Source: an uncultured Gammaproteobacteria bacterium
Lineage (GTDB): Bacteria > Patescibacteriota > Microgenomatia > UBA8517
Length of the DNA stretch: 64,000 nucleotides
Direction of reading: 5' to 3'
Assembly (NCBI GenBank): GCA_964494885.1
Contig: CAZBTH010000002.1
Span: 29,271 to 93,270, forward strand
Shown here: positions 6,065-62,270 of the stretch, in pieces
How the letters are laid out: each line of letters opens with the position of its first letter
Numbering within the stretch: the first letter of the stretch is position 1
Made by a program: the position numbers and the translations under genes
Notes under the pieces: generated by a model
Databases searched by the model: none
Told to the model about the DNA's origin: nothing
The model's input: only the letters and a program-made list of their open reading frames with translations

Positions 6065-6640
6065 ATGAAGAAAATATTAACCGTTCTATTGTCAGTTTTT
6101 ACTCTTTTGGCCTTCCAACTTGCCTTAATACCTGGGATAGCTTTTGCCGTTAATGACCCCGTTTTCCCTGCCTGTGCCAACCCCCAAGGAACATTGATCG
6201 CCTCATACGACAACGGCGTCCATGGAATTCCCGGCGACACAGGCACCTACAACGGAAGCGATAAGGTGTATAGCGTAACAGGAGATACCCTGATTCAATG
6301 TTTTTGCGCAGTAAATGGGAACGGGATCCAAACAAACTGGTGGAAAGTATCCTCACTTAGCCAAGATCAAATTGACGTTCTTAAATCTGAGGGGTGGACA
6401 TTTGTTCCCAACGGAATCGCCTGGGGGCTTGAAGACAGCGCCTACATGATTAAAAATGCAGGATATTCATGTGGAGGGACGGGTAACGGCGGATCAAACT
6501 CAAACTCCTCATCTGATTCCAATTCTTCAACTGGACAGGTTTTAGGTTTGGCATTCACGGGAAATATTATTTTTGTCTTTGCCTTTTTGGGGTTTGGGAT
6601 CTCTTCTCTTCTTCTCGGTCTTTATCTAAGTAGAAAATGA
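6065..6640 (+). CDS. Secreted surface protein with a C-terminal sortase-type sorting signal (LAFTG, TM segment, SRK tail)
   Basis: Signal peptide; Ser/Asn-rich linker; LAFTG motif followed by a hydrophobic segment and basic tail; immediately upstream of a sortase gene. Confidence 0.5.
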   Translation: MKKILTVLLSVFTLLAFQLALIPGIAFAVNDPVFPACANPQGTLIASYDNGVHGIPGDTGTYNGSDKVYSVTGDTLIQCFCAVNGNGIQTNWWKVSSLSQDQIDVLKSEGWTFVPNGIAWGLEDSAYMIKNAGYSCGGTGNGGSNSNSSSDSNSSTGQVLGLAFTGNIIFVFAFLGFGISSLLLGLYLSRK

Positions 6641-6795
6641 AGCTCCCCAACACACACAACAGAGTATCTTCTCCCAAACTTCATCGGGAGCGAAATCCCT
6701 CGCGCCGCCGGCAAAGCCTTTGGCGACGCACGGCCGAAGCGAAAAAAATTCGCTTACCCACAAAGACTTTAAGCCCGAGGTATTCGCGAAGGGGG

Positions 6796-7332
6796 ATGAA
6801 AACTACCGGAAAGGTCTTAGTTTTTCTTGGTCTTATATCAACTATTTTCGGATTATATCTGGCTTGGCAGAGAATCAATCCCGAAAGAATCTCCTTTAAT
6901 ACCCCTAAGTTTGACTCGCCCAATTTACAAAAGAAAACTAACTTAACGCCTATCGAAATTAAGATGGGGGAGCAGAGTATTGATTTGCCGATTTACCCTG
7001 CATCTATAAACGGTACGTCCTGGGAAACAACAACTAAAGGCGTCTCCTATTTAAAAAACACGCCGACTCCGGGAGAAATCGGAAATAGTGTCATGTATGG
7101 TCACAACTGGACCAATCTTCTCGGCCCGTTGGTCCGGGCAAAACCCGGGCAAAAAATAGAGATTACATATAGTGATGGAAGTAGAAAAAATTTTGAGATT
7201 ACTTTTACGCAAACCGTCTCCCCCGATCAAACATTTATTCTAAATAACACCAACGACAGAAGAATTACTATTTATACATGCACAGGATTTCTTGATAGTA
7301 AAAGATTTGTGGTCGTAGCAACCCTGATATAA
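6796..7332 (+). CDS. Sortase family transpeptidase
   Basis: GHNW (His), ITIYTCTG (TLxTC-like Cys) and a following Arg; N-terminal TM helix. The track ORF starts at 6637, but the ATG at 6796 is preceded by GGGGG and removes an implausible basic N-terminal extension. Confidence 0.7.
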   Translation: MKTTGKVLVFLGLISTIFGLYLAWQRINPERISFNTPKFDSPNLQKKTNLTPIEIKMGEQSIDLPIYPASINGTSWETTTKGVSYLKNTPTPGEIGNSVMYGHNWTNLLGPLVRAKPGQKIEITYSDGSRKNFEITFTQTVSPDQTFILNNTNDRRITIYTCTGFLDSKRFVVVATLI

Positions 7333-11631: not shown

Positions 11632-12078
11632 TTAAATTTTTTTAATAAATCTTTTAATTTTTCTATCCCTTTCCAAAATTGGCTTTCGATATACTTCACC
11701 AGTTAGGGTCCTCTTTTTCTGTGAGAATATTCCCAATATTTCTTCAATTAAAGCCATACCCAAATCTGAATTAGCTATATTTTCCGCTACTTTTTTTACA
11801 GCCCCATTACCGTATTTTATCTTCAAGCTCATTTTGTTGATAGTATTGGGGGTTACCCGTAAAATATTTGATATATTTTCGTAAATATTTCCTTTTTCTA
11901 AAAGTACGGCAATTGCCAACCTTTTAGCAAGTATTGTTTTTTCGATAGGGGATAAGAAATCATTCAAAAAGTTAATTATTTCTTTTTTATTTCTAAATTT
12001 AATTAGTGTATTTTCCAGAAGATCATAAATTCTTTGATCTACTTCTGGTCTCAATCTTATTTTCGAAACCTGTGTCAT
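11632..12078 (-). CDS. TrpR-like DNA-binding protein, YerC/YecD family
   Basis: LSPIEKTILAKRLAIAVLL...NISNILRVTPNTINKMS matches the TrpR/YerC helix-turn-helix core; a paralog lies at 20398-20844. Confidence 0.65.
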   Translation of the reverse strand: MTQVSKIRLRPEVDQRIYDLLENTLIKFRNKKEIINFLNDFLSPIEKTILAKRLAIAVLLEKGNIYENISNILRVTPNTINKMSLKIKYGNGAVKKVAENIANSDLGMALIEEILGIFSQKKRTLTGEVYRKPILERDRKIKRFIKKI

Positions 12079-17401: not shown

Positions 17402-19120
17402 ATGCCTGAACAAACCGAAGTACTCGATGCTTACGAAGAAAAGTGGGGTGAATATAGTGAACCTGCCGAGCGCGGCGGGGGAAGAGGCAAACGCCCCAAA
17501 AACGGCCCCACCAAAAGCCAGGAGGCTTCATCTGCGGAAGAGAACGCAAGGCTTGCGCGTGAGCGCCAGGAGTTCGCTGAAAACCAGATCTTGGAATACG
17601 TTGATACCACCTGGAAAAGCTTCAAAGAGGAAGATCGGCCTAAAAAAATCGCTGAATACGCAAGATGGATGGAAAAGGCCGCCAAACAAAGAGAGTTTAA
17701 AATTGACACAAATGAAGTAAGGTTTAAATCTAAATTATCAAGCGGCAACGGTGGTCAAAATGTTCAAAAAAATGAAACCGCCATAGATGCTAAACATATT
17801 CCAACTGGACTTAGATCCGGCTCTCAGGACGAAACTAGCCAGCTACACAACAAACAAGTCGCACTTCAAATATTAACATTGAATATTAAATCTCAACTTA
17901 AACTCTGGAAAGAAACATCAAAAGAATTCAGGAAAAAATTAATGCACCCCGAAGAGTCCGAAAAATTCGAAACCGGTTTTGTGCCACTTCCCGAAGGAGT
18001 AACAATCGACAGCCTCAGGGCGCAAGTGCCGCCATCAGAAGAACTAACCGTTATGTTTGGTTGGGAAGGTGATATCGATGGTAAGCCCAAAAGCGCCACA
18101 GTCGCCGGTGAAAATTTTTATTTATATCCCGCAATAGAATACCGGGTAAATTATAATTCATCCCAAAATGGCGATGTCTACATGAACCCAGTTGACCTAA
18201 AAAGTGGCGCACCGGAAGTTTCCGATATCCCGGCCGCTCTTGATATACATTTGGCATCAGGAAAGGGTAGGCAGACATCATGCATTAATATTTCTGCTAA
18301 AAGTTCGGATGGGAAAATATCAAAAGCTATCGGTAAAATTCAAATGGGAATTGAAAGGTTGCAGGATATTGACAGACTCAAGACTTTTGCCCAAGAATAT
18401 TACCAATCGAATCTTGCGACCGATCTGAAAACAATAAAAGAAGCATTAGACATTACCACTTTTCAAGAAGGGTCCCGTGCAGACCAAATAATATACCGCC
18501 AAGCCTGGCTAATATTCGAAAGTGAGTTTTACATAAGATTAGATGAAAACAGGAATACAGACAATCTAAAGGAACTAATGCAAGACTCCCTGATTCAATA
18601 TATGGAGCAAATTAAAGATATTTTAGAAAACAGACCGACAGAATTAATTAATATAACCGACGACCCAAATAGCATAGTTATACATTTTGACACTATCCCA
18701 ACCGACTTAAGCGACCCGGATCATGGTCTTATTGTACTGACAACTTATATTCCGAACCGCGGTTGGACCGTAATGGCCCCAATTGGTGATTGCCCAAATT
18801 TTGCAGCCTACATGCTCAAGGATTTTGCCACCGGCCCGAACAAAGAAAACCAAGCATCAATATTTGCGTATTCATTTCAAACTGCGAAAGAGAGCGGAGA
18901 ATTGGACATTTTAAACGGCGGTAAAACATTATTGTTTAAAAACTTATCGGACCTTAATCCCTACATGGCCGTTTTTCATAGCGACGACCACACCCTCAAA
19001 ATGGCTTTAGAAACTCTCAGGGTTGCAGGGGATCCGGTTCTCGGAGAGGATACCTTTAATTTTATTATCTATAAAAAGAGCGAGGTTGTTCCTGAAATTT
19101 TATCCTTAGATTTGACATAA
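17402..19120 (+). CDS. Large hypothetical cytoplasmic protein (572 aa) with a charged, low-complexity N-terminus
   Basis: Long uninterrupted ORF with no recognisable motifs; follows the paralog pair. Confidence 0.5.
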   Translation: MPEQTEVLDAYEEKWGEYSEPAERGGGRGKRPKNGPTKSQEASSAEENARLARERQEFAENQILEYVDTTWKSFKEEDRPKKIAEYARWMEKAAKQREFKIDTNEVRFKSKLSSGNGGQNVQKNETAIDAKHIPTGLRSGSQDETSQLHNKQVALQILTLNIKSQLKLWKETSKEFRKKLMHPEESEKFETGFVPLPEGVTIDSLRAQVPPSEELTVMFGWEGDIDGKPKSATVAGENFYLYPAIEYRVNYNSSQNGDVYMNPVDLKSGAPEVSDIPAALDIHLASGKGRQTSCINISAKSSDGKISKAIGKIQMGIERLQDIDRLKTFAQEYYQSNLATDLKTIKEALDITTFQEGSRADQIIYRQAWLIFESEFYIRLDENRNTDNLKELMQDSLIQYMEQIKDILENRPTELINITDDPNSIVIHFDTIPTDLSDPDHGLIVLTTYIPNRGWTVMAPIGDCPNFAAYMLKDFATGPNKENQASIFAYSFQTAKESGELDILNGGKTLLFKNLSDLNPYMAVFHSDDHTLKMALETLRVAGDPVLGEDTFNFIIYKKSEVVPEILSLDLT

Positions 19121-19845: not shown

Positions 19846-20316
19846 ATGGTAATGGACCCCGAAGCAATTCAAGAAAACTTTGAATCTGACATGTACCAAA
19901 CGAAACGCCCTTCACTACCAGTTAGGGGCAAGGGGGCCGAAAGGCTAAGGATATACGAGACCGAAAAAGCCGAACAAGCAATTCAAAAACATGTACACTT
20001 TTTGGAATCGGATCAAAACCCAAAAACACGACAGGAAAAACTAGGCAAGTATTGGGGATGGGTCAATGAATGTATGAGAATGCGATACCTCCCCCAAACA
20101 GAAATTGAAGATTTTGAGATTTCTCAGACAGAAAACACAGTTACGGTACTTCACAAACCGTCACAATTGTCATCAACGTTTTCCGGAGCCAAAGACCAGC
20201 ACGAGAATGAGAAGGGTGCATACGAACGAATTTGGGGAATTCTCGAAGATCACAGAGATGCATGGAAACACAGGGTTTCCAAAAAATTCAAGGCAAGACA
20301 CAAAGTTATAAGTTAA
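19846..20316 (+). CDS. Hypothetical protein
   Basis: ORF only; start uncertain because only 19 bp separate it from the divergent upstream gene. Confidence 0.35.
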   Translation: MVMDPEAIQENFESDMYQTKRPSLPVRGKGAERLRIYETEKAEQAIQKHVHFLESDQNPKTRQEKLGKYWGWVNECMRMRYLPQTEIEDFEISQTENTVTVLHKPSQLSSTFSGAKDQHENEKGAYERIWGILEDHRDAWKHRVSKKFKARHKVIS

Positions 20317-20397: not shown

Positions 20398-20844
20398 CTA
20401 GATTCCCTTCTTAAAACGGCTGATGTTTTTATTTCTTTGAAACACTTTTTTGTGATATTCACTTAAGGGTAAACCTTTTATTGGAATATTGAACATGCTT
20501 TGGATTTCCTCCCAAATTATTCTGGCCGAATCCCGCTTTAAAACATTCCCAACCACTTCATTCGTTCCCTTTTCTCCATACTTTATATGCAAATTCATTT
20601 TGGCAATCGTCGCCGTGGTAACATGCAAGATCCTTTTGATTTCCTCGTAACTGTTTCCTTTTGCCAAAAGTACTGCCAAAGCAAATCGTTTTGCCAACAT
20701 TATTTTTTCGGTAGGGGATAAGAAGTCATTTAGAAATATATCAAATTTCTCTTTGTTTTTGATTGAAAGAAGCGATTCACTAAAGAGGTTGAATATCCTA
20801 TCCCAAACTTCCGGTCTTAATTTAAACCTCGAAACCATTGTCAT
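20398..20844 (-). CDS. TrpR-like DNA-binding protein, YerC/YecD family (paralog 2)
   Basis: LSPTEKIMLAKRFALAVLLAKGNSYEEIKRILHVTTATIAKMN; same length and collinear with 11632-12078. Confidence 0.65.
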   Translation of the reverse strand: MTMVSRFKLRPEVWDRIFNLFSESLLSIKNKEKFDIFLNDFLSPTEKIMLAKRFALAVLLAKGNSYEEIKRILHVTTATIAKMNLHIKYGEKGTNEVVGNVLKRDSARIIWEEIQSMFNIPIKGLPLSEYHKKVFQRNKNISRFKKGI

Positions 20845-21004: not shown

Positions 21005-21649
21005 TCAAATATCAACCAATGGTTCCTTACTGTCTTTTACAAAGGCTTCATCGATTCTTTGCATTCCAATAAGATCCGGTTTAACCCTGATTAAATCTCC
21101 TCGTATAATACGATCTAAATATTTTTCTTTCAATGTTTCACTAAAAAGTTCAAATTCGCTATGGGGATCTGGATCACTCGGCTTAGGTTTAACAAAATGT
21201 CCAAATACATGCTCCCCATCTATTGTTGCATGAATGATGGGGTGTGCTGTGTTTGTTAGTTTATAAACAATCTCGACATCAGTAAACAACTCTGCACACG
21301 CAACGGCAAATAAAAAGGATGGTAACTTACAATCACGCCGCTCGGAATTATCAAGCTCCCGTACCTGCCCTCCTATTGTATTACATCCAGAGCGACGATC
21401 TTTAAACTGATAGTCAATTCCAACTTCTCGTCCTAGGTTCTCAAAAGTTTGTTTTTTGTAGTCTTCTGCAATATAACTTTTCGCATAAGCATGGGCGATG
21501 CCTTGCGCCTTAGAAAAATCTTCCACGGTACTTATTGGTAGCTCTCGAGGAATCCCAACCTTGTCTCTAGAATGTAGTCTGCGCACTCTTGTATATCCTC
21601 CATATTCCGTTCCCTCTTCAGCCCCCATGTTACTTTTCTCCTCTCCCAT
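21005..21649 (-). CDS. Hypothetical protein overlapping the recombinase gene by 20 bp and probably co-transcribed with it
   Basis: 214-aa ORF with no recognisable motifs. Confidence 0.45.
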   Translation of the reverse strand: MGEEKSNMGAEEGTEYGGYTRVRRLHSRDKVGIPRELPISTVEDFSKAQGIAHAYAKSYIAEDYKKQTFENLGREVGIDYQFKDRRSGCNTIGGQVRELDNSERRDCKLPSFLFAVACAELFTDVEIVYKLTNTAHPIIHATIDGEHVFGHFVKPKPSDPDPHSEFELFSETLKEKYLDRIIRGDLIRVKPDLIGMQRIDEAFVKDSKEPLVDI

Positions 21650-22661
21650 GGAATTGTTCGTGAATATCTCTTAATTGTTTATTGGTCACATGTGTATAAA
21701 TCTGAGTTGTAGAAATATTTTTGTGTCCCAACATCTCTTGTACCGAACGAATATCCGCCCCGGCGTTTAATAAATCAGTTGCGAAACTGTGTCTCATGAC
21801 ATGAGGCGTGACTTCCATCGGCATTTTCATTTTATGAGAATACTTTTTTATCATTCTCTGGACCGAGCGGGGAGTGAGTCTCATTTTTTCATCCGGCGTG
21901 GCCGGATCAGACTTCCCTTTGTGATGAATGAAAAGGGGTTTGTAGTGATCGCGCCTTTCATTTAAATATTTAATTAACCAATCAGTTGCACGGCTGGAAA
22001 GAAACACTACCCGAGCCTTTCCACCTTTTCCCACAATCCCGAATTCTTTTGTATCAAGGTTTACTTTGTCACGGTCAAGTTTGGTAAGTTCCGAAACACG
22101 AAGGCCTGTAGAAAATAAAACTTCCAAAATCGCTTTGTCCCGCTTACCCTGAATAGAATCTTGTGAGGGAGCATTCAGCATTCTGTCGACTTGCTCACCA
22201 CTTAAAAATTTTACCTGCCGTTCTTCCACCTTAGGCAAATCAATTTTATCCGGAGCCATAGCCTGAAAATCATTCCTAATAAGCCATTTAAGAAAACTTC
22301 TAAGAGCAATAACATGATAACTCTGAGTGCGGCGTCCCATTAGGTGACCATTTTCCCCAGGCAGGGTTGTTAAAAAAACTCTAAAACTCCTTACAATGTC
22401 CTGATTGATATCAATTATGTTTTCCCGGATTCCCTGAGATTCCATCCATAAAATAAGTCTGGATAAATAATGTCTGTAATTCCGAAGGGTTAGGGGAGAG
22501 GCGCCACGTTCTACCTGGAGATATTCCAAAAAGTCTTCAACCTTCTGAGCAATCTCTGAATTGTTAATTTGAGCAGACTGACTGTTTGCGAAACCCCTAC
22601 GAAGCCTTGGCGTAGTAGGGTTTGCAATTTCGCTTTGATTGATCGGTGCATTATCAACCAT
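21630..22661 (-). CDS. Tyrosine site-specific recombinase (XerC/XerD-like / phage integrase family) with a roughly 40-aa N-terminal extension
   Basis: EDFLEYLQVERGASPLTLRNYRHYL N-terminal SAM-like domain; catalytic R...HVMRHSFAT...LGHKNISTTQIYTHV (R-H-R-Y). Confidence 0.85.
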   Translation of the reverse strand: MVDNAPINQSEIANPTTPRLRRGFANSQSAQINNSEIAQKVEDFLEYLQVERGASPLTLRNYRHYLSRLILWMESQGIRENIIDINQDIVRSFRVFLTTLPGENGHLMGRRTQSYHVIALRSFLKWLIRNDFQAMAPDKIDLPKVEERQVKFLSGEQVDRMLNAPSQDSIQGKRDKAILEVLFSTGLRVSELTKLDRDKVNLDTKEFGIVGKGGKARVVFLSSRATDWLIKYLNERRDHYKPLFIHHKGKSDPATPDEKMRLTPRSVQRMIKKYSHKMKMPMEVTPHVMRHSFATDLLNAGADIRSVQEMLGHKNISTTQIYTHVTNKQLRDIHEQFHGRGEK

Positions 22662-40733: not shown

Positions 40734-41957
40734 ATGTTAAACTTTAAAGAGATGAATAAATTACAAACATTAAAAGGTTTTAGGGACTTTCTACCGAAAG
40801 ATGCCCTAAAACGAACGTGGGTTAGAAACAAGATGATTTCCGTTGCCGAAAGGTGGGGTTATGAACCGATCGAAACGCCCACACTTGAACCCTATTCCCT
40901 ATTCAAAGGAGAAATCGGGGAAGATGAAAAATTATTTTACAAATTTACCGATAATGGAGATCGTGAAGTTATGCTTAGGTACGACCAAACAGTCCCAACT
41001 TGCAGGTATGTTGCAGCTAACCAAAATTCGCTGACATTCCCTTTCAAGAGATATCAATGTCAATCGGTCTTTAGGGCAGAAAATACACAACGAGGACGAT
41101 ACCGCGAATTTACACAATTTGATTTGGACATTTTCGGAGTTGCCTCGGCGTCGGCTGATGCCGAGGTTATAGCTGAAAATTTGGATACATATTTAAACAT
41201 AGGATTTAAAAAACCCATTGTCGTCTTCAACAACAGGGATCTAATGAAAGATATTCCCTATGAAGCGATAGTGGCCATCGATAAACTTAAAAAAATTGGT
41301 GAACAAGGAGTAATTGAAGATATGATTAAGAAGAGAATATCAGAAAATCTGGCCAAGGAGTATTTCAAAAAAGTTCTAGAAATAAAACCCGACGAAACGG
41401 TCAAAACTATAATTTCCTATCTTGAAAAATCCGGATTCGGAAGTGAATATTATCGCTTTGAGCCCACACTCGCCAGATCCTTCTCCTACTCTCAGGGACC
41501 CATTTGGGAAATTGTTATTGAAGATTACGGCGCCGGTTCGGTTGGCGGCGGAGAACGTTATGATGGAATGATGAAACGCCTGACCGGCCTGGACATTCCG
41601 GCAACTGGGATTGCTTTTGGTTTTGACAGAACGGTGGAAGCAGCAGATCAATTAAATCTTATTCCTGTTGAACTTACTAAAACCAAAGCACTTGTTACAA
41701 TTTTTGCCCCGGACTTACTCGAAAACTCAATAAAAGTTGCCCGCGATTTAAGGGAAAACAAAATTAATACAGAACTTTATCCAAATGAAAATGCAAAACT
41801 TGATAAACAACTCAAATATGCCGACAAAAAAGGAATTCCCTATGTAGTGATAATCGGACCGGAGGAAGTTAAAGAAAATAAAGTAGTTCTTAAGAATCTC
41901 AAAACCAAAGAGCAAACAAAAACAACAACAGAGAATCTGATTTCATTGATTAAATAA
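40734..41957 (+). CDS. hisS: Histidyl-tRNA synthetase
   Basis: LKGFRDFLP N-terminus, class II motif 2 FRAENTQRGRYREFTQFDLDIFG, motif 3 GGERYDGM, C-terminal anticodon-binding domain. Confidence 0.9.
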   Translation: MLNFKEMNKLQTLKGFRDFLPKDALKRTWVRNKMISVAERWGYEPIETPTLEPYSLFKGEIGEDEKLFYKFTDNGDREVMLRYDQTVPTCRYVAANQNSLTFPFKRYQCQSVFRAENTQRGRYREFTQFDLDIFGVASASADAEVIAENLDTYLNIGFKKPIVVFNNRDLMKDIPYEAIVAIDKLKKIGEQGVIEDMIKKRISENLAKEYFKKVLEIKPDETVKTIISYLEKSGFGSEYYRFEPTLARSFSYSQGPIWEIVIEDYGAGSVGGGERYDGMMKRLTGLDIPATGIAFGFDRTVEAADQLNLIPVELTKTKALVTIFAPDLLENSIKVARDLRENKINTELYPNENAKLDKQLKYADKKGIPYVVIIGPEEVKENKVVLKNLKTKEQTKTTTENLISLIK

Positions 41958-42018: not shown

Positions 42019-42927
42019 ATGAACTCTGCCCGAAAACGCGCTTATATTGAGCTCCTAATTGTGACCATTATCTGGGGTGCGGCAACCCCGATCATTAAAT
42101 ATACGCTGGAGGGTTTTAATACTCTTACATTTCTTACATACCGCTTCGGACTCTCTACAATCCTTGCCGTCCTAGCATTTATAATCTTAAAACAGCACCT
42201 ACCCAAAGATAAATCTACGTTAGTTAAACTGTTGAAATTCGGCTTTTTGACATCAACAGTGTCTTTGGGCTTTTTGTTTTTTGGTTTGGAGAACACAACC
42301 GTGCTGGACGCAAGTCTAATTACCCTCGCAAACCCAATCTTAATAACTGTTGCCGGTGTTATGTTCCTTAGAGAGCGCGTGACCAAACGGGAAAAGATCG
42401 GCATGGCAATTGCCCTTGCCGGAACACTCCTGACTGTTATTGAGCCGATTTTACAAAATCACGGCGGACAAATTAGGCTTTCAGGAAACGTATTAATAGT
42501 AGGCTATTTAGTTGCCACAGCTTGGGGAGCGGTTCTGGCTAAGGAGCTTCTAAGAACAGGGGTATCTCCATTGATTATGACAAATGCATCATTCGTAATT
42601 GGCTTTATTTCACTTTTACCGCCATTTCTAATTACAAACATCCAGCCATTGACCGCCATTGTTTCTGCTCCGATATTTTATCACCTTGGAGTTTTCTTCA
42701 TGGCGTTTTTATCCGGAAATTTGGCCTACTATCTGTCGAACAAAGCCCAGAAAACTATCGAGATCGGAGAGGCATCCCTATTCTCATACCTCTACCCCGT
42801 CTTCTCTACCCCGCTTGCTATTCTCTGGCTTGGAGAATCAATTACCCCTGTTTTTATTGCCGGTGCAGTTATAATCACGCTCGGAGTCATTCTTGCCGAA
42901 ACAAAGAAGGCGAAAAAAACTGGTTAA
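42019..42927 (+). CDS. EamA/DMT-family transporter
   Basis: 10 TM helices in two EamA-like halves. Confidence 0.7.
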   Translation: MNSARKRAYIELLIVTIIWGAATPIIKYTLEGFNTLTFLTYRFGLSTILAVLAFIILKQHLPKDKSTLVKLLKFGFLTSTVSLGFLFFGLENTTVLDASLITLANPILITVAGVMFLRERVTKREKIGMAIALAGTLLTVIEPILQNHGGQIRLSGNVLIVGYLVATAWGAVLAKELLRTGVSPLIMTNASFVIGFISLLPPFLITNIQPLTAIVSAPIFYHLGVFFMAFLSGNLAYYLSNKAQKTIEIGEASLFSYLYPVFSTPLAILWLGESITPVFIAGAVIITLGVILAETKKAKKTG

Positions 42928-42959
42928 CTGTTTACTGCTGAACTGATTACTGGTATAAT
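42926..42959 (+). promoter_or_regulatory. 34-bp promoter element AACTGTTTACTGCTGAACTGATTACTGGTATAAT (extended -10) upstream of rpmE
   Basis: 32 of 34 identical to the element upstream of rpsF on the minus strand (47161-47200). Confidence 0.5.
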
Positions 42960-43012
42960 ACAAGCTCAGACGATCTCTAAGTACTCTGTACTTTGAACTC
43001 TGCACTATTTTA

Positions 43013-43324
43013 ATGAAAGTAAAAATTCACCCAACTTGGTTTAATGACGCAAAGGTAACCTGCGCTTGTGGAAACGTGTTCACAACGGGGGCAACTTTTC
43101 CCGAGCTTCGTGTCGACGTTTGCTACAATTGTCACCCCTTCTACACAGGCACAATGAAGCTTCTTGATACAGCCGGTCGGGTTGACGCTTTTAAAGCTAA
43201 AATGGCAGGTGCAGGCAAGAAAGTTATGAGCAAAACCGAGAAAAGAAGACTCAAACAAGAAAAGAGGCTCCTTGAAGAAAGTGCAAGACCAACTACTCTT
43301 AGTGAGCTTCGCTCCGAAGAGTAA
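43013..43324 (+). CDS. rpmE: Ribosomal protein L31 with a C-terminal extension
   Basis: MKVKIHP...CACGN...VCYNCHPFYTG zinc-ribbon L31 signature. Confidence 0.85.
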   Translation: MKVKIHPTWFNDAKVTCACGNVFTTGATFPELRVDVCYNCHPFYTGTMKLLDTAGRVDAFKAKMAGAGKKVMSKTEKRRLKQEKRLLEESARPTTLSELRSEE

Positions 43325-43339
43325 CTTTCGAATTGCCAA

Positions 43340-44035
43340 ATGGATAATCAAAATGCATATTTAGAAATTCGTGGTGCCACAGGCGGAGATGAAGCTAAAC
43401 TTTGGGGAGCCGACCTTCTTCGTATGTATATGCGTTTTGCCCAAAAAAAAGCTTGGAAAGTGCTTCAGATTTCAGACGCGACCATAAAAATAACAGGCCA
43501 AGGCGCGTTTAACGCGCTCAAAAATGAGTCCGGTGTTCATAGAGTTCAGCGTGTTCCTGTTACCGAAAAAAGGGGCAGAATTCATACTTCCACAGCCACA
43601 GTCGTGGTACTCCCTGAAATTAAGGAAAACGACGTTCAAATTAACCCCATTGACCTTGAATGGTCTTTTACAACCGGAGGCGGGCACGGCGGCCAGAACG
43701 TAAATAAGGTTGCTACAGCTGTACGACTTGTCCATAAACCAACCGGTACCGTCGTAGAAGCCCGGGAGGAGAGGTTTCAGGAACAAAACCGCCAAATTGC
43801 ACTGTCACTCCTAAGATCCCGCCTATGGGAAAGGCAAGAAGCAGAAAAGATACGCACGGTTGCAGGCTACCGGAGCGCTATAGGTCGGGGCATGAGGAGC
43901 GAAAAGATCCGCACTTACAACTTCCCCCAGGACCGTGTTACGGATCATAGAATCGGCAAAAACTGGGGAAAACTTGACGCAATCATAGACGGCGATTTAG
44001 ACAAGATAATTGAACTGACAAAAGATGTCCAGTAA
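43340..44035 (+). CDS. prfA: Class I peptide chain release factor, RF1-type (PVT motif), lacking N-terminal domain 1
   Basis: Aligns to RF1 from about residue 110 onward: LEIRGATGGDEAKLW, VQRVPVTEKRGRIHTS, GGQ motif GGGHGGQNVNK, RTYNFPQDRVTDHR; only 15 bp separate it from rpmE, leaving no room for domain 1. Confidence 0.7.
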   Translation: MDNQNAYLEIRGATGGDEAKLWGADLLRMYMRFAQKKAWKVLQISDATIKITGQGAFNALKNESGVHRVQRVPVTEKRGRIHTSTATVVVLPEIKENDVQINPIDLEWSFTTGGGHGGQNVNKVATAVRLVHKPTGTVVEAREERFQEQNRQIALSLLRSRLWERQEAEKIRTVAGYRSAIGRGMRSEKIRTYNFPQDRVTDHRIGKNWGKLDAIIDGDLDKIIELTKDVQ

Positions 44036-44108
44036 GGACGCCAACTTGACACCACACGTCGCAAGCGTTTTTTTGACAAAATGATGTATGTAATGATATA
44101 ACCCATTT

Positions 44109-44795
44109 ATGGCCGAAAGAATTAGCGGAAACCCCAGAGAACTAAAGTTTGGCGGTGAAGGAAAAGCGGAAAGCATAAACCGCGGTTTTGCAATCGCGAC
44201 ACTCAGAAACCCAAGAGCTGAATACAACTTCTCAAGAGGTGAAAGAATACTTACCAACTGTTTTGACGACAACAAAAAAGTCTCTGTAGTTGTGGTAGCA
44301 AATGAAATAAAACAGCTCAATGATTTTTCCGTCCCACAACTTGCTTTAGACGGATTTTTCTCCGCACCTCACGTTGTAAACGGAATGAAAACATATCCAG
44401 GTTATGAAAAATTAAACAAAAAATCGATTGTTCAAGCCGTCACCTTTGTTAAAGAGGGCGCCTTTAACAAATTGTCCAAAGATCTACAAAAAGATATTTT
44501 AGCGCACTACGATATATTTGACGGATTAGTAAAAATGCCTGAACTTAGGCATCTATTCTTTCCCACCATGTGTTTTTGGCTTACAGAAAATGGCGGAGAT
44601 ATCAAAGACTGGGTAGATTTTCTAAAAGTAAATCACCTGATTTTAGATAAGGAAAAAAAGAATATGGAAAGTTATACCAATATGGGAAGCAATATGTTCA
44701 GGCTTTTAACAGGTCGGTCTGGAATGCTTCAAGAGATTTCACAAGACTCCAAAGATGGATTATTTAAACCATTGGTCTTAGGGATTTTTGATTAG
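44109..44795 (+). CDS. Hypothetical protein
   Basis: ORF; TTGACA promoter-like sequences upstream. Confidence 0.4.
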   Translation: MAERISGNPRELKFGGEGKAESINRGFAIATLRNPRAEYNFSRGERILTNCFDDNKKVSVVVVANEIKQLNDFSVPQLALDGFFSAPHVVNGMKTYPGYEKLNKKSIVQAVTFVKEGAFNKLSKDLQKDILAHYDIFDGLVKMPELRHLFFPTMCFWLTENGGDIKDWVDFLKVNHLILDKEKKNMESYTNMGSNMFRLLTGRSGMLQEISQDSKDGLFKPLVLGIFD

Positions 44796-47200: not shown

Positions 47201-48319
47201 TTAGGATCCGATTTTGAATTCCACAACATCACCGTCATGTATTACGTAGTCGCGGCCCTCGCTCGTCACCTTTCCGGCCTCGCGGGCGGCTTTCCAGCCG
47301 CCAGCTTTAACGAACTCGTCAAATCTGATTACATCTGATTTGACAAATTTTTTAATAAAATCCGTATGAATTACACCGGCGGCTTCCTGCGCACTGATAC
47401 CTACCGGTATCGTCCACGCCCTCACTTCCTTCTCCCCCGCTGTTAGAAAGGTAATAAGACCTAACGTTTTAAATGCTTTCTGAATTAAACGCTCAAGTCC
47501 CGATTTTTTAATTCCAAGATCCTCCATGTATATTTTTTGGTCTTCGTTAGAAAGTTCCGCAAGTTCGCTTTCGGTTTTGGCGCAAATTGCCACAACTTGA
47601 TCGGGGCTTAATTTAAGCTTTTCGGCAAACGAAATTTCCAAATCATGAGCGTTAACCAGATCTTTTTCATCCACATTTAAAACCACCAGTATGGATTTTG
47701 CAGTCAAAAGCCCCAGTTCCTTGGCCATTCTTTGCTCGTCTCCGGTCACTGCTATCATTCGAATGGTAGAAGAGGAATTAAGTGCCTGTTTGAATTTTTG
47801 AATTATCTTCCAACGATCTTTCAACTCCTTATCTGGAGTGTTTCCCGGATCTTTCTGTTTTTCAAGAGTTTGAAGATCTGCAAGGGCAAGTTCTGTTTCG
47901 ACAACTTCTAAATCAGTTTTAGGATCTGAAACGCCTCGTTTGACAATATCAGGGTCGCTAAACGCGCGAAGAACAAAACAAATTGCGTTGGTTTCCCTAA
48001 TGTGACTTAAAAATTTATTCCCCAACCCCTCCCCTTTTGAAGCGCCGGCAATAAGCCCTGCAATATCGACAAATTGAACGACCGCCGGAACTTCCGGCGG
48101 GAGCGAAACCCTGAGCGAAGTCGAAGGGTTCAACTCTTTTGCCACTACTTCCGCTAATTGAGGTAAACGTTCATCCGGCACAGGTACAATCCCTATATTT
48201 GGTTCAATAGTGGCAAAAGGAAAATTGGCAACATACGCTTGTTGCTTTTTAAGCAGAGCGTTAAAAAGTGTACTTTTGCCTACATTTGGAAGACCCACTA
48301 TTCCGACGCTCAATCCCAT
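47201..48319 (-). CDS. ychF: Ribosome-binding ATPase YchF (Obg-like GTPase family)
   Basis: MGLSVGIVGLPNVGKSTLFNAL G1 motif; C-terminal TGS domain. Confidence 0.9.
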   Translation of the reverse strand: MGLSVGIVGLPNVGKSTLFNALLKKQQAYVANFPFATIEPNIGIVPVPDERLPQLAEVVAKELNPSTSLRVSLPPEVPAVVQFVDIAGLIAGASKGEGLGNKFLSHIRETNAICFVLRAFSDPDIVKRGVSDPKTDLEVVETELALADLQTLEKQKDPGNTPDKELKDRWKIIQKFKQALNSSSTIRMIAVTGDEQRMAKELGLLTAKSILVVLNVDEKDLVNAHDLEISFAEKLKLSPDQVVAICAKTESELAELSNEDQKIYMEDLGIKKSGLERLIQKAFKTLGLITFLTAGEKEVRAWTIPVGISAQEAAGVIHTDFIKKFVKSDVIRFDEFVKAGGWKAAREAGKVTSEGRDYVIHDGDVVEFKIGS

Positions 48320-49892
48320 GTTCCAAGTATTGGGTATTTATTGGTATGTTTATCCATGTATTTACCTCTCCTCCTTTCTTAATGACTATTTTACTCACTA
48401 AATCCCTTAATACCAAGTCCTTATTTGAAAAGTCCTGTGATTTTAATACCTCCTTTGCTGCTTCATAAAGTAAAGATTTTTCAGTTTCATTAATGGTAAT
48501 TTTTACGGGTTTAAATTTAAGAAGTTTTTTAAGTTTTATTTCAAAGTTTAATTTCTTTTCCTTTACCTGCTTCATTAACCCCCTAAGTTGATCAATATCT
48601 ATCAAATTTTCTGCATACATTTGGGCAAATTTATTCTCTTGATCAAACAAATTAGATATTTTTGCCTTAGTTGTAAGAATATCTTGCTCTAAAGATAGAT
48701 TGACTTGTGATCTGCTCTCGGCATAATCCGTTATCTTTTGTTTAAGAAAAACATCATCAGATATTATGTTTTTAATGTGATTCCACCAAAGCCCCTCAAT
48801 TACAAAAACATTCACCCCCTCGCAATCACATGTTCTTAATTCATTTCTTCTCACCTTATCGCTACTTCTGTAATATCTTTGCGATCCTTGCTTTCCATCA
48901 CCAACCATAGGGAAACCATGTTCACAAAAGAATTTACCTGTGAGCAAATAGTTATATTTCTTGTTCTTGTGAGCAAATTTTTTGTTGTAATTTAATAATT
49001 CCAAGGACTTATTAAAAAGGAACTTATCATCAATAAGAACTGGAACATCAAACGGAATCCACTCTTCTTTTGGTCTTACCCTTCTGCTATTTTTCTTTAC
49101 TCTGATATATTTTTCATTTTTAATTCGTTTTTTACTTACAACTGATTCTGATTTATTGTAATAAGCAACGCCAGTAAAATATGTTTCGCAACACAAGATT
49201 CTACCTACTGGTCCTTTTGTCCAATATTTACTTTTACCCTTTTTTGTAGGAATACATTGGTCGGACAATTTTTTTATGATTTCATGAATACTCATCTTTT
49301 CAACAACAAACCAGTGAAAAATATTTTTAACAACATTACTTTCAAATTCATCTATTTCCCAATGTGTTGGAGTAGTTTCCGTTTTTTTAATGTATTTATA
49401 TCCATACAAAGCTGAACCATTGATTACTATTCCATTCTTTGCCTTATATAACTTCCCCCTTCTCATCCTCTCAATAATTTTTACTCTTTCATATTCATGA
49501 AAAACTCCCTGCATTGCTTGTAATACCTTTTCCTCAGGGGTATCAGCCTTGGTATCGTGCAACGATATAAATGAAACGTCATGGTCTTTCAATTCCTCAA
49601 TGATTACTTCCTGATGCGCAAACCTTCGGGACAATCTGCCACGATCATATACATACAAAGAGGTAAATTTCCCAACTACAGCAGCATCCCTCATCCTGTC
49701 TAAATCGGGTCGTGCTATTAGTTCCCCAGTCCAGCCATCATCAATAAATATATTTTCATCAGGAAGAATATTAGCGTCTTGAGCAATTTTTAACTTTAAT
49801 TCATCTATTTGAGATTCAATTGTAGCTTCTTGTTCTTGCCTTCCAGTAGAAACTCTTGCATACAAGGCAACTATCTTTCTGTCATTGTTCAT
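48261..49892 (-). CDS. Large serine recombinase (serine integrase)
   Basis: N-terminal resolvase domain with VALYARVSTGRQ catalytic Ser; recombinase domain; Cys-rich zinc-ribbon region; 543 aa; the C-terminal 59 nt overlap the ychF start. Confidence 0.85.
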   Translation of the reverse strand: MNNDRKIVALYARVSTGRQEQEATIESQIDELKLKIAQDANILPDENIFIDDGWTGELIARPDLDRMRDAAVVGKFTSLYVYDRGRLSRRFAHQEVIIEELKDHDVSFISLHDTKADTPEEKVLQAMQGVFHEYERVKIIERMRRGKLYKAKNGIVINGSALYGYKYIKKTETTPTHWEIDEFESNVVKNIFHWFVVEKMSIHEIIKKLSDQCIPTKKGKSKYWTKGPVGRILCCETYFTGVAYYNKSESVVSKKRIKNEKYIRVKKNSRRVRPKEEWIPFDVPVLIDDKFLFNKSLELLNYNKKFAHKNKKYNYLLTGKFFCEHGFPMVGDGKQGSQRYYRSSDKVRRNELRTCDCEGVNVFVIEGLWWNHIKNIISDDVFLKQKITDYAESRSQVNLSLEQDILTTKAKISNLFDQENKFAQMYAENLIDIDQLRGLMKQVKEKKLNFEIKLKKLLKFKPVKITINETEKSLLYEAAKEVLKSQDFSNKDLVLRDLVSKIVIKKGGEVNTWINIPINTQYLEHGIERRNSGSSKCRQKYTF

Positions 49893-58444: not shown

Positions 58445-59074
58445 TCAAGTCCCTAAATCGGTAAACACCACAAGACGTTTACTGTAACTCTTATTTGCTT
58501 TGTCCCACGAGCCATAACAAGTAATAAGATTAAGATGAGCAGCATCGTCTAGCGTGAATATCTCTTCTGCATAACCCGGACTATAAATACGGTTTTCCCG
58601 TACAACAAAAGTGATCAGTTCTCCCTTATTATCCTCTATGAACAATCTGTCTCCTACTTTTAATTTATCTAAATCAAAAAACACACCGGGCTCACCACTC
58701 TTTCCGTCTATATGTCCGTCAATTACAGCGCTTCCTACTGCCCCCGGCACTGTCCCGGAACTAAACCAACCAACGTTGGTAACACTGCTTGGCACGTCCA
58801 TTTCACCATTAGATTTGATTCCCACATATTCAACGTATGTATCAACATTTATAGTTGGAATTATCAAACGTACAGGCAATTTTTCTTCTCTGTTTTGAGA
58901 TTCGTTTGCTAAAACACTGCTGCCAAATTGGGAATACCAAATATTGTTCCATATTTGACCCATAGCAAAAAATAGAATTAGTATAGAAGAAAACAACACA
59001 AAAATTATTTTTATCAAAGATTGTCTTAAGGTTGTTATCTTTATATATTTACGCGATTGAATATCCTTGTACAT
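58445..59074 (-). CDS. Sortase family transpeptidase
   Basis: N-terminal TM helix; VIDGH (His); LNLITCYG (TLxTC); RLVVF (Arg). Confidence 0.7.
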   Translation of the reverse strand: MYKDIQSRKYIKITTLRQSLIKIIFVLFSSILILFFAMGQIWNNIWYSQFGSSVLANESQNREEKLPVRLIIPTINVDTYVEYVGIKSNGEMDVPSSVTNVGWFSSGTVPGAVGSAVIDGHIDGKSGEPGVFFDLDKLKVGDRLFIEDNKGELITFVVRENRIYSPGYAEEIFTLDDAAHLNLITCYGSWDKANKSYSKRLVVFTDLGT

Positions 59075-59087
59075 AGAAGTTGAAAAA

Positions 59088-60056
59088 TTACCGTCTTCTA
59101 ATTTTTACAATTAAAAAGACTATCGACAGTATGAGGAAAGTCGTAATTGACGCATCAAATGGAGTTTCATATAAACTTTTTATGGGGCTAAAAAGATTTT
59201 GGGATGCCGAGGATGCTATTTTCTCAACCAACATCGGTGTTGGAACAGCTGACGGGGTAGCAATTATGGCAGTTGATGGAAGTTTTGCTTTAACCGCCAC
59301 TATCGGCTTTGGTTTAACCATGACTGCCCCCTCTCCCGGAATCGCGTCGGTAAACACTACCAGGCGCTGGGGATAGGTGCCGTTTACCTGATTCCAAATT
59401 CCTTCACACGTTATCAAATTAAGATGGGCAAGCCCGTCACCGGATGTGAAAACAGTTGTGGGATCGGCGTTTCGGTCAAAAGATTGCACCGCTCTTACCA
59501 TAAACGCAAGAGTTTCGCCTTTGTCATTTAATACATATACCTTATCGCCAATTTTAAGTTTATCTAAGTTATAAAAAACAAATGGTACCCCATTACTTAT
59601 ACCGAAGTGTCCCCCGATAACCGAACTCCCCACCTGACCCGGATGAGGACCAAGAGAAAACCAGGCGACGTTTACCGAACCTATGGGAACATCCATTCTT
59701 CCATCATTTGTAATAAGTGCATCCTCAACTACCGAATCTACACCTATAGTCGGGATTTGAAGACGTACCGGAAGCCCCCGGGGAATCCCACCTGGGTCCC
59801 TAATGCTGGAATATGCAAGCTGGGAGCCGGGACTAATTGATACATCAAAAAGCGGAGGGGAACCGACATTTGCAATATTGCCCGTTGTTGGAGCAAATTT
59901 TGTTTTTGGAAATCTCCATCCAAAAGATTTGTCAGTGAATACATTTACAGAGCTATTTTGATTAATAACATTTGGCAACCAAAAAAAACCTGCGCCAAAG
60001 ACTCCAATCAATGCTGATGTAAATACGATAAATTTGGTTAAATTTGATATCTTCAT
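59088..60056 (-). CDS. Sortase family transpeptidase (paralog) with an extended N-terminal region
   Basis: VIGGH, LNLITCEG, RLVVF; the N-terminal region contains SPPLFDVSISP, shared with the upstream substrate-like gene. Confidence 0.7.
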   Translation of the reverse strand: MKISNLTKFIVFTSALIGVFGAGFFWLPNVINQNSSVNVFTDKSFGWRFPKTKFAPTTGNIANVGSPPLFDVSISPGSQLAYSSIRDPGGIPRGLPVRLQIPTIGVDSVVEDALITNDGRMDVPIGSVNVAWFSLGPHPGQVGSSVIGGHFGISNGVPFVFYNLDKLKIGDKVYVLNDKGETLAFMVRAVQSFDRNADPTTVFTSGDGLAHLNLITCEGIWNQVNGTYPQRLVVFTDAIPGEGAVMVKPKPIVAVKAKLPSTAIIATPSAVPTPMLVEKIASSASQNLFSPIKSLYETPFDASITTFLILSIVFLIVKIRRR

Positions 60057-60964
60057 CGCTTTCTACGGGTTAAAAAGTAAACTATGACTAACACCGCCAA
60101 AATGCCGGACAGAATGGCCCACACTACAATTTTGGGATTATTAGTTACCAGCATAAGAGGACTGATAGATACATCAAAAAGTGGAGGGGATTTTGCATTT
60201 GGATTGTCGACTTTAACGGATAAAGTGGCCATGCCCTCCGCTTTTAATCCATTGGCATAAGCTGTAACAGTAACAGTGTCTGTGGTCGTTTGCCTTATTG
60301 GCATTGTACATGAATAAATCCAGACTTCATTTATATCTAAAAGTTGGTTGCCATTAGTGTCCCCCAATTTTCCTGACATTGCGCTACATTTATCATCAGT
60401 GACTGCTACATCATTTAAAGACACCAAGCCGGGATTATTTACTTTATACGTATATGTTATATCGCTCCCGCCTTCCGGCAAGACCAACGGGTACTCAACT
60501 TTTGTGGTGTTAATTATACTCACAAGAGGTGGCAGATTTTTAGAACCGACCACAACTGTTGAGTAAGCTTTGTGTGTTGCAGTTGTGTTGTTAGCAATAC
60601 CTGTGGCAGTTGCAGTATTTTTAGTTGTACTGGAGATCGTGGTGGTACAGTTAAATCTCCATGTTTCACTATAGTCGAGTTTGGAATTATTGTTATCGTC
60701 CCCTGTTACAAATTTAACAGACCCGCATTTGTCATCGACAACATTTACGTTGCTCAATGGTACCTCCGGGAGAAAATTTTTAACCGCGTAGTTGTAAATT
60801 ACATTACCTCCGCCACTGGGAAGATTTAAAGGTGTCGGCACTGAGGTAATGCCTATCAAGGGAACATACAGCACGCTTTCACTTTCCTGCGCTGAAACAT
60901 CTCTCACTAAAAAAGCAAACTGCGTTAAAAAAGTTAGCAGTACCGCCACAAACTTTATTTTCAT
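60053..60964 (-). CDS. Secreted surface protein with a C-terminal TM anchor and basic tail (RRKR); candidate sortase substrate without a canonical LPXTG
   Basis: Signal peptide; Thr-rich repeats; C-terminal hydrophobic segment plus RRKR. Confidence 0.5.
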   Translation of the reverse strand: MKIKFVAVLLTFLTQFAFLVRDVSAQESESVLYVPLIGITSVPTPLNLPSGGGNVIYNYAVKNFLPEVPLSNVNVVDDKCGSVKFVTGDDNNNSKLDYSETWRFNCTTTISSTTKNTATATGIANNTTATHKAYSTVVVGSKNLPPLVSIINTTKVEYPLVLPEGGSDITYTYKVNNPGLVSLNDVAVTDDKCSAMSGKLGDTNGNQLLDINEVWIYSCTMPIRQTTTDTVTVTAYANGLKAEGMATLSVKVDNPNAKSPPLFDVSISPLMLVTNNPKIVVWAILSGILAVLVIVYFLTRRKR

Positions 60965-60968
60965 TGCA

Positions 60969-62270
60969 TCAAGTGCGTTTTAGCTTGAGTAAGAAGAATG
61001 AAAACAGGAAGACTCCTCCTACAAGCGTGTACCACGGAATATTGTTTCTCTGAGAACTAAAACCTGTATTTGGAAGACAAGGGACCAAAGGATTGCCCGT
61101 AGTCGGACATGGCGCACTTGCAGTACCCCCAACAAGTTTAGCCGGCCCATAGCTACCTATCGCGCAATCATTTCTACCGGCAATTTGGAACCACATAGGC
61201 TGGTTTGCAGGTAAATTATTTATTGTAGTCGAAAATCCTGTGACGTTGGTATTGTATAACCAATTCGCGTTTGAAGGACCGTACTGAATATTAAAACTGT
61301 CTACACCCGAGTTGGGACCCCAGCTTAAAAAGATACTTGTGGAGCTTACCCTTCTCGAATCTATTATACTCAGAGCAACCAGTGTACTTGGAAGCGGAGG
61401 GCAGGATATTTCAGCCGGTCCGGCCGCAGAAGTGGTTGTTGTTGATGTGGTTGTGGCAGTTGTAGTTGCAGCTGCGGCACATGACGGGTTATTAACCGTT
61501 GTATTTCTAAAAGTAATTGCGGCCGTTTGAGCCAAGACTCTTCCATTAACAGTCGCTCCACCCGCGGGGAAGTCGACCGACGCTTGCGCCAAGACAGTCC
61601 CTTCAAATGTGGTGGTTCCGTTAAAAGTCGCAGAAGATCCGACTGTCCAAAATACATTACAAGACTGCACTCCTCCGCTTAGAAGTACTCTACTTCCCGT
61701 ATCGGTAATAAGCGTGGATGCCATACGGAATATAAAAATGGAATCTGCATCACCACTAAGTGTGAGGTCTCCTGTCAAATTAGTAGTGTCAGCCGGTACA
61801 TCATAAACACCTTGCGTTAAGGTTTGACCGCCAAGTTGAGCCAAAAGAGTTGTGTCGGCCGATCTCCCGTTGAGATCGGTAACAACTGCCGTCGCGTCCG
61901 TTTGACCTTGCAGTGCAACTGCATTCTGATACTGAATAGTGCCATTATTTATAGTTCCATTTGTCGTAACCCCAGTACAAGGACTGGGGAAACCTGTACA
62001 CGTAGCAGGGCTATCTAACCCCATATCACCATCGTTAAGTACAGTTCCGGCGACATCATTGGTAATTGTAGATTTTGCCAAAGCGGCAAAGTTATCTACA
62101 GTCAGTAACGAAACCGCTGCCGGATTTGAATATGCTTGAGCCTTAGGTATTGGCACAAAAACAAATTGCACAAAGACCATTAGAACTACTGCCAAAATTT
62201 TCTTTATTATATTTAATGTTTTCATTGTAATCTCCCTGAAACAATCTCGACCAGCTGAACTATCCCCCAT
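60969..62270 (-). CDS. LPXTG-type cell-surface protein (LPNTG, then a hydrophobic segment, then a KLKRT tail)
   Basis: Signal peptide; Thr/Ala/Ser-rich low-complexity regions; classic sorting signal at the C-terminus. Confidence 0.6.
   Translation of the reverse strand: MGDSSAGRDCFREITMKTLNIIKKILAVVLMVFVQFVFVPIPKAQAYSNPAAVSLLTVDNFAALAKSTITNDVAGTVLNDGDMGLDSPATCTGFPSPCTGVTTNGTINNGTIQYQNAVALQGQTDATAVVTDLNGRSADTTLLAQLGGQTLTQGVYDVPADTTNLTGDLTLSGDADSIFIFRMASTLITDTGSRVLLSGGVQSCNVFWTVGSSATFNGTTTFEGTVLAQASVDFPAGGATVNGRVLAQTAAITFRNTTVNNPSCAAAATTTATTTSTTTTSAAGPAEISCPPLPSTLVALSIIDSRRVSSTSIFLSWGPNSGVDSFNIQYGPSNANWLYNTNVTGFSTTINNLPANQPMWFQIAGRNDCAIGSYGPAKLVGGTASAPCPTTGNPLVPCLPNTGFSSQRNNIPWYTLVGGVFLFSFFLLKLKRT

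Follow-up and report, generated by a model that had tools for sequence, protein, structure and literature searches.

A release factor RF1 naturally lacking its N-terminal domain in a Woesebacteria-type Patescibacteria genome

A prfA gene was identified in a 64-kb stretch of DNA (64,000 nucleotides, referred to below as the window) from a groundwater genome of Woesebacteria type (Patescibacteria), and its product of 231 aa is a release factor RF1 which naturally lacks the entire N-terminal domain (domain 1). The protein is very probably the ortholog of the housekeeping RF1 of this Patescibacterium, reduced to domains 2, 3 and 4. Going beyond the original prediction for this DNA, the loss of domain 1 is graded and recurrent in the ultra-small Patescibacteria, and it is accompanied by a more basic core of the protein. 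To our knowledge, the other described bacteria have domain 1 in both RF1 and RF2. Its role in contacting the L11 stalk and in coupling to RF3 has been probed mainly by laboratory deletions.

Architecture and family assignment of the 231-aa RF1

The prfA gene starts with ATG and ends with TAA. In its product Pfam recognized the RF-1 domain (positions 2-116 of 116) but only the C-terminal half of the PCRF domain (98-194 of 194 profile positions), and the two NCBIfam prfA models, of 347 and 361 positions, were matched only from positions 102 and 110 onward, respectively, up to their ends. The N-terminal helical domain 1, a membership feature of the family covering model positions 1 to about 105, was absent. 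Alignment to solved RF1 structures placed the beginning of the protein at the first strand of domain 2, with its residue 2 corresponding to residue 107 of E. coli RF1, its residue 1 to residue 102 of T. thermophilus RF1, and its residue 5 to residue 87 of T. maritima RF1.

The TAA of the upstream gene rpmE (43322-43324) lies in the prfA frame, 15 nt before the prfA ATG, so the ORF could not be extended upstream and there was no room for domain 1. No domain-1-like ORF was present in the 64-kb window, either by tblastn or by six-frame hmmsearch (best E 0.8; the profile combined 40 domain-1 sequences, some full and some partial). No clear Shine-Dalgarno sequence preceded the prfA ATG. The original prediction had described a match to RF1 from the start of domain 2 through PVT and GGQ to the C-terminus, with no coding space upstream as rpmE ends at 43324; the first point was borne out by Pfam, NCBIfam and the structure alignment, and the second by the in-frame TAA. 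The features of the gene are as follows.

43340..44035, + strand: prfA without domain 1, encoding RF1 domains 2, 3 and 4 only (Pfam, NCBIfam, structure alignment)
43382..43396, + strand: GGDEA, residues 15-19, at the start of the first helix (G15, G16 and E18 invariant in 48 RF1 sequences)
43477..43478, + strand: junction of the domain-2 hairpin deletion, D46/A47 (alignment to T. maritima RF1, 1RQ0/2FVO)
43556..43564, + strand: PVT, residues 73-75, encoded by cct gtt acc, the tripeptide 'anticodon' of RF1 type (P73 and T75 invariant)
43688..43696, + strand: GGQ, residues 117-119, the catalytic motif of peptidyl-tRNA hydrolysis, ggc ggc cag (columns invariant)

Column conservation was judged from an alignment of 48 RF1 sequences, 11 of which were close relatives and the remainder 45-63% identical. 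All 27 invariant RF1 columns were present in the 231-aa protein (including G15, G16, E18, Q70, P73, T75, T83 and G117-G118-Q119), and the expected residue was also found in all of the 30 nearly invariant columns, among them H82; Q70, H82 and T83 near PVT are conserved as well. The GGDEA segment is taken here, from RF1-ribosome structures, as the element of RF1 which reads the first base of the stop codon. An AlphaFold2 model of the protein had a mean pLDDT of 85.3 and a pTM of 0.71, and its best Foldseek matches were ribosome-bound RF1 chains (query TM-score 0.85-0.89, rmsd 2.4-3.1 Å).

Domains 2, 3 and 4 of the canonical RF1 of E. coli, T. thermophilus and T. maritima (1RQ0) were 45-48% identical to the 231-aa protein, which shares with them PxT, GGQ, the GGDEA segment, all invariant columns and the fold, and shares the rpmE-prfA neighbourhood with other Patescibacteria. 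It differs from canonical RF1 in lacking the helical domain 1 of about 105 aa and a domain-2 hairpin of about 8-10 aa, and in having a far more basic core. The lost hairpin, '..tdlGGireVV..' in T. maritima RF1, comprised about 8 aa lying between D46 and A47 as well as 2 aa following K40 (43460..43480 of the window). The deletion was common to Woese-, Ames- and Levybacteria-type RF1, while the hairpin was kept in the independently truncated RF1 of Parcubacteria.

For family assignment, the two RF1 models gave 308.2 and 298.8 bits, the RF2 model 199.3, the PrfH model 58.5 and the ArfB model 42.5. In a PDB search, RF1 chains were matched at E values of 1e-59 to 1e-70 and RF2 chains at about 1e-37. 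The PCRF and RF-1 domains, the PxT tripeptide and GGQ, by which RF1 is recognized (TIGR00019 / NF001859), were all present. RF2 (prfB; TIGR00020) was rejected, with the motif being PVT and not SPF and the score reaching 199 bits against a cut-off of 370, below that of RF1. PrfH (TIGR03072) was rejected because its score, 58.5 bits, fell short of the cut-off of 166.65, the match covered the GGQ domain only and the upstream gene was rpmE, not an rtcB-like gene. ArfB (NF006718) was rejected too, at 42.5 bits against 100 and over residues 97-132 only, with domains 2 and 4 present in the protein. The absence of domain 1 was the only defining feature of PrfH also found in the 231-aa RF1.

PrfH (RF-H) is likewise a natural class-I release-factor relative without domain 1 in which GGQ is kept, but its decoding region carries residues of its own and an rtcB-like gene always precedes it, whereas the 231-aa RF1 has PVT and lies downstream of rpmE. 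ArfB (YaeJ) and mitochondrial ICT1 are homologous in the GGQ domain (36 residues matched by the ArfB model), but ArfB is a codon-independent protein of about 140 aa consisting of the GGQ domain and a basic tail, while the full codon-reading domain 2/4 is kept in the 231-aa RF1. An RF-H-like identity, which had been raised as an alternative when the gene was first described, therefore falls away on the PrfH score, the RF1 scores of 299-308 bits, the rpmE neighbour and the PVT motif. The comparison of RF1, RF2 and PrfH models proposed at that time placed RF1 clearly ahead of RF2 and by a wide margin ahead of PrfH, and the view that the rpmE-prfA context favours a true RF1 agrees with the position of full-length RF1 in Patescibacteria.

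Both RF1 scores were below the curated prfA cut-offs (308.2 against 400 and 298.8 against 423.25 bits), purely because about 105 model positions, a third of the model, are absent. With such a score, annotation pipelines give the name 'PCRF domain-containing' or 'hypothetical', and prfA may be counted as missing. TIGR00019 is presumably one of the GTDB bac120 markers.

Stop codon usage was counted in 57 long non-overlapping ORFs of the window, in which TAA ended 31, TGA 14 and TAG 12. The standard code thus applies, in line with the original prediction that TGA is used as a stop, and an RF1 activity is needed for the ORFs ending in TAG. It is reasonable to place an RF2 elsewhere in the genome, given the TGA stops. 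No second codon-reading release factor was found in the 64-kb window, and RF2, RF3 and L11 were not found in the window or in the 10 kb of upstream flank. A scan for the NPPY motif of prmC gave a single candidate, in a Paceibacter locus, and none in the window or among the Woesebacteria loci.

The rpmE-prfA unit and conservation among relatives

The region upstream of prfA contains the following features.

42931..42959, + strand: promoter-like site, TTTACT, 17 nt, TG-TATAAT, a consensus match only (10 of 12 positions, extended -10 TG)
43013..43324, + strand: rpmE, bL31 of 103 aa with CxC...CxxC cysteines (Pfam Ribosomal_L31 over residues 1-63; NF000612, 89.4 bits)
43205..43321, + strand: C-terminal tail of bL31, about 35 aa, residues 65-103, ending RP-x-[TS]-L-x-E-[LM]
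43325..43339, + strand: rpmE-prfA spacer of 15 nt, both genes in one frame

No terminator-like site turned up in the interval from 42700 to 44400. The promoter-like site upstream, the lack of a terminator-like site in that interval and the tight spacing in relatives suggest a bicistronic rpmE-prfA unit, in which prfA would probably be co-transcribed with rpmE and perhaps translationally coupled to it. In the four other Patescibacteria loci with full-length RF1, rpmE was directly upstream in three and 438 nt away in the fourth, which supports the orthology of the 231-aa RF1.

The shared frame, seen here and in the closest relatives, would allow a bL31-RF1 fusion to be made by read-through of the single in-frame TAA, with the stop and 5 codons lying between the two genes. 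This is extremely unlikely, for the frame was shared in only about 22 of the 48 related loci, and the spacing ranged from a 41 nt overlap to a 100 nt gap (-41 to +100 nt) with several overlaps out of frame. In addition, all orthologs had a conserved ATG of their own 4-10 codons before YLEIRG, ahead of the conserved YLEIRGATGGDEAK.

The C-terminal tail of bL31 and its motif were conserved in the Microgenomates-type loci (L002-L053, L061 and L062), and were missing beside full-length RF1 and in the truncated Parcubacteria loci, where bL31 had 69-88 aa. It was considered whether a separate polypeptide from a split gene could provide domain 1 in trans, or whether the lineage-specific tail (RP-x-T-L-x-E-L) does so functionally; two weak tblastn matches of domain-1 queries were obtained on the tail (E 0.18 and 0.32). 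Such a supply seems very unlikely. Profile-profile comparison of the tail with domain 1 by hhalign gave a probability of 0.9%, the tail was found also in lineages keeping 60-67 aa of domain 1 and was absent from the truncated Parcubacteria loci, and the 64 kb held no domain-1-like ORF. Moreover, bL31 is located at the central protuberance and the 30S head, far from the L11 stalk. The tail was accordingly rejected as a captured remnant of domain 1. A study of CPR ribosome features noted an enlarged bL31 and made no mention of RF1, prfA or termination.

The short prfA, as a gene of its own, was widespread in related genomes. Its best 120 relatives among 5.8 billion proteins were all 228-239 aa long and at least 81% identical; the named ones belonged to Woesebacteria or Microgenomates, several of them on contigs of 0.75-1.08 Mb, and in the sources they were labelled 'PCRF domain-containing protein' or 'release factor-like protein'. 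The closed 1.08-Mb Woesebacteria genome CP066686.1 carried the same arrangement of a 103-aa rpmE, a 15-nt gap and a 231-aa prfA. A scan of one genome per species with lineage-specific RF1 peptides, which a divergent paralog would escape, returned 61 loci. In the 48 loci of Woesebacteria/Shapirobacteria type, 0-23 residues stood before domain 2 and the in-frame room was at most 42 codons.

For prfA and its nearest relative dN/dS was 0.065 (dN 0.044, dS 0.68), and the median over 9 unsaturated prfA pairs was 0.05. The gene without domain 1 is under strong purifying selection.

Many proteins of other phyla that look like N-terminally truncated RF1 are in fact fragments at contig edges or products of frameshifted calls, and the truncated RF1 outside Patescibacteria in a library clustered at 50% identity were rejected on this ground, having junk C-termini. 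The same could be asked of the present gene, but misassembly, a frameshift or decay to a pseudogene is a negligible possibility: the identical 231-aa protein occurred on 6 contigs, more than 100 clusters and also closed genomes showed the same architecture, dN/dS was about 0.05, and the ORF was intact with its own start. The comparison with orthologs which the original prediction called for has thus been made, and the orthologs are not full-length; dozens of related genomes carry an equally truncated gene, which supports its preferred reading of a natural, lineage-specific minimal RF1 without domain 1.

Stepwise loss of domain 1 and charge of the core

Three states of domain 1 were found across Patescibacteria, namely full (about 100 aa), partial (45-75 aa) and none. 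The Woesebacteria-type RF1 without domain 1 formed a single clade in a neighbour-joining tree of domains 2-4, drawn without support values. In the sister Amesbacteria and Levybacteria and in locus L062, 60-67 residues of domain 1 were kept and Pfam PCRF was matched from position 42-48. More distant Patescibacteria (Moranbacteria, Parcubacteria and others) had a full domain 1 of 101-105 residues.

When a 254-aa RF1 of Parcubacteria type was used to seed a further search, the matches, 59-91% identical to it, were a mixture of proteins with a full, a partial and no domain 1. In the few of these partial forms that were read, the N-terminal helices were retained and the C-terminal ones were not. 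In two more Parcubacteria loci, rpmE overlapped a prfA of 242 or 244 aa by 8 and 4 nt. Domain 1 has thus been eroded in different ways, and its complete loss took place in at least two, probably three, Patescibacteria lineages, always at the rpmE-prfA position.

These intermediate forms also bear on whether the 231-aa protein is a specialised paralog derived from RF1, serving in rescue or quality control by a PrfH-like logic, with a canonical full-length prfA elsewhere in the genome. The natural release-factor relatives without domain 1, PrfH and ArfB, are accessory factors (PMC1586002), and a second GGQ protein was present in the window, so the lineage has other release-factor-derived proteins. 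A paralog was nevertheless judged improbable. The PrfH and ArfB models gave 58 and 42 bits against about 300 for RF1, and PVT and all decoding residues were kept. The gene occupied the same rpmE-prfA position as full-length and partial RF1 of Patescibacteria and was nested among them in the tree. There was no rtcB partner, and no RF1 paralog was found in the flanks of the scanned loci or of the CP066686.1 locus, each locus giving one RF1-like match. The partial domain 1 of the sister lineages favours the erosion of a single housekeeping gene, and together with synteny and the gene tree it makes a canonical prfA elsewhere unlikely.

The loss of domain 1 was accompanied by a shift of charge in the rest of RF1. 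The proteins without domain 1 had a core of net charge +7 (range +5 to +11). For full-length RF1 the core value was +1 in a set of 29 and -3 in the 4 from Patescibacteria; domain 1 itself carries -9 to -11. In an independent set from Parcubacteria the medians were +9 (n=15) and +4 (n=44), respectively (Mann-Whitney p about 1e-6); both comparisons are uncorrected for phylogeny. Basic residues were gained at K77 and R78, adjoining the PVT loop, and at R183 in the presumed switch-loop region, where the usual Asp was gone at M185. The extra positive charge of the core would plausibly replace the binding energy lost with the acidic domain 1.

Predicted termination cycle and other genes of the window

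Judging from its conserved residues and fold, the 231-aa RF1 is most likely a working UAA/UAG release factor which makes no contact with the L11 stalk or RF3. The domain 2/4 unit would read UAA and UAG in the 30S decoding centre by means of PVT, GGDEA, Q70, H82 and T83, and domain 3 would put GGQ in the peptidyl-transferase centre, releasing the peptide. Without domain 1 the factor would neither touch the L11 stalk nor be recycled by RF3, so it would have to bind and leave the ribosome unaided.

An RF1 of E. coli engineered to lack domain 1 has the same layout of domains 2-4 as the 231-aa RF1. PMC1586002, citing Mora et al. 2003, gives domain 1 as dispensable for codon-specific peptide release in vitro and as required for interaction with RF3, and the truncated E. 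coli RF1 as functional in vivo. The engineered protein is a laboratory construct in a cell containing RF3, whereas the 231-aa RF1 is natural, lineage-wide and has accompanying substitutions. In a literature search no paper was found on RF1 without domain 1 in Patescibacteria.

Bacillus and Mycoplasma keep domain 1 of RF1 although they have no RF3, so the loss of RF3 alone does not explain the loss of domain 1. According to PMC1780047, 72 of 191 bacterial genomes lack RF3, those of Bacillus and Mycoplasma among them, and how termination works without RF3 is called unclear there. A large natural clade and independent lineages living on an RF1 without domain 1 provide a natural experiment on the purpose of this domain, which bears on RF3-free termination and on how the loss is compensated, with the basic substitutions near the PVT loop and the presumed switch loop as candidates. 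At 231 aa, the protein may represent a minimal codon-specific release factor, and could serve in reconstituted or engineered translation systems.

A wider proposal, which we regard as possible but doubtful, is that Woesebacteria-type and some other Patescibacteria use a simplified termination cycle. In such a cycle RF1 and RF2 would both lack domain 1, RF3 would be absent, and the factors would bind through a basic core without contacting the L11 stalk, a minimal mechanism that would have arisen repeatedly and co-evolved with the reduced ribosome and possibly with the bL31 tail. If true, it would be a distinct minimal mechanism of bacterial termination.

Several other genes of the window were recorded. 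The second GGQ protein (17402..19120, + strand) had 572 aa, of which residues 97-177 made up its only RF-1/GGQ domain ('SSGNGGQNVQK', Pfam 58.8 bits); it was without a codon-reading domain, and its other residues, about 395, had no Pfam match. Only 4 relatives were found among 5.8 billion proteins, one of them in CP066686.1 under the name 'release factor-like protein'. The 572-aa protein may act in rescue or quality control, as a factor particular to this lineage. A 156-aa ORF 0.7 kb downstream of it (19846..20316, + strand) gave a weak, sub-threshold RF-1 match (E 5.5e-4) and had no GGQ. The region of 11.6-22.7 kb is possibly a variable island, in view of what flanks it: two Trp-repressor-like genes, at 11632..12078 and at 20398..20844, and a tyrosine integrase gene at 21630..22661.

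At the hisS position, the window encoded a HisRS of 407 aa with an anticodon-binding domain (40734..41957). The corresponding position of CP066686.1 (locus L001, 7742..8650) encoded a HisRS-like protein of 302 aa, which was only distantly similar and had no Pfam match to the anticodon-binding domain on record. The difference could be a gene replacement or another domain loss.

A large serine recombinase of 543 aa (Resolvase, Recombinase and zinc ribbon; 48261..49892, - strand) adjoined ychF, and the presence of an AbiEii gene at its position in a related genome suggests an integration hotspot. Two sortases, a DUF7507 protein and an ice-binding-like protein of 433 aa were encoded in 58445..62270 (- strand), and a third sortase lay upstream of this cluster (6637..7332, + strand). 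The proteins of the cluster are probably sortase-anchored surface proteins.
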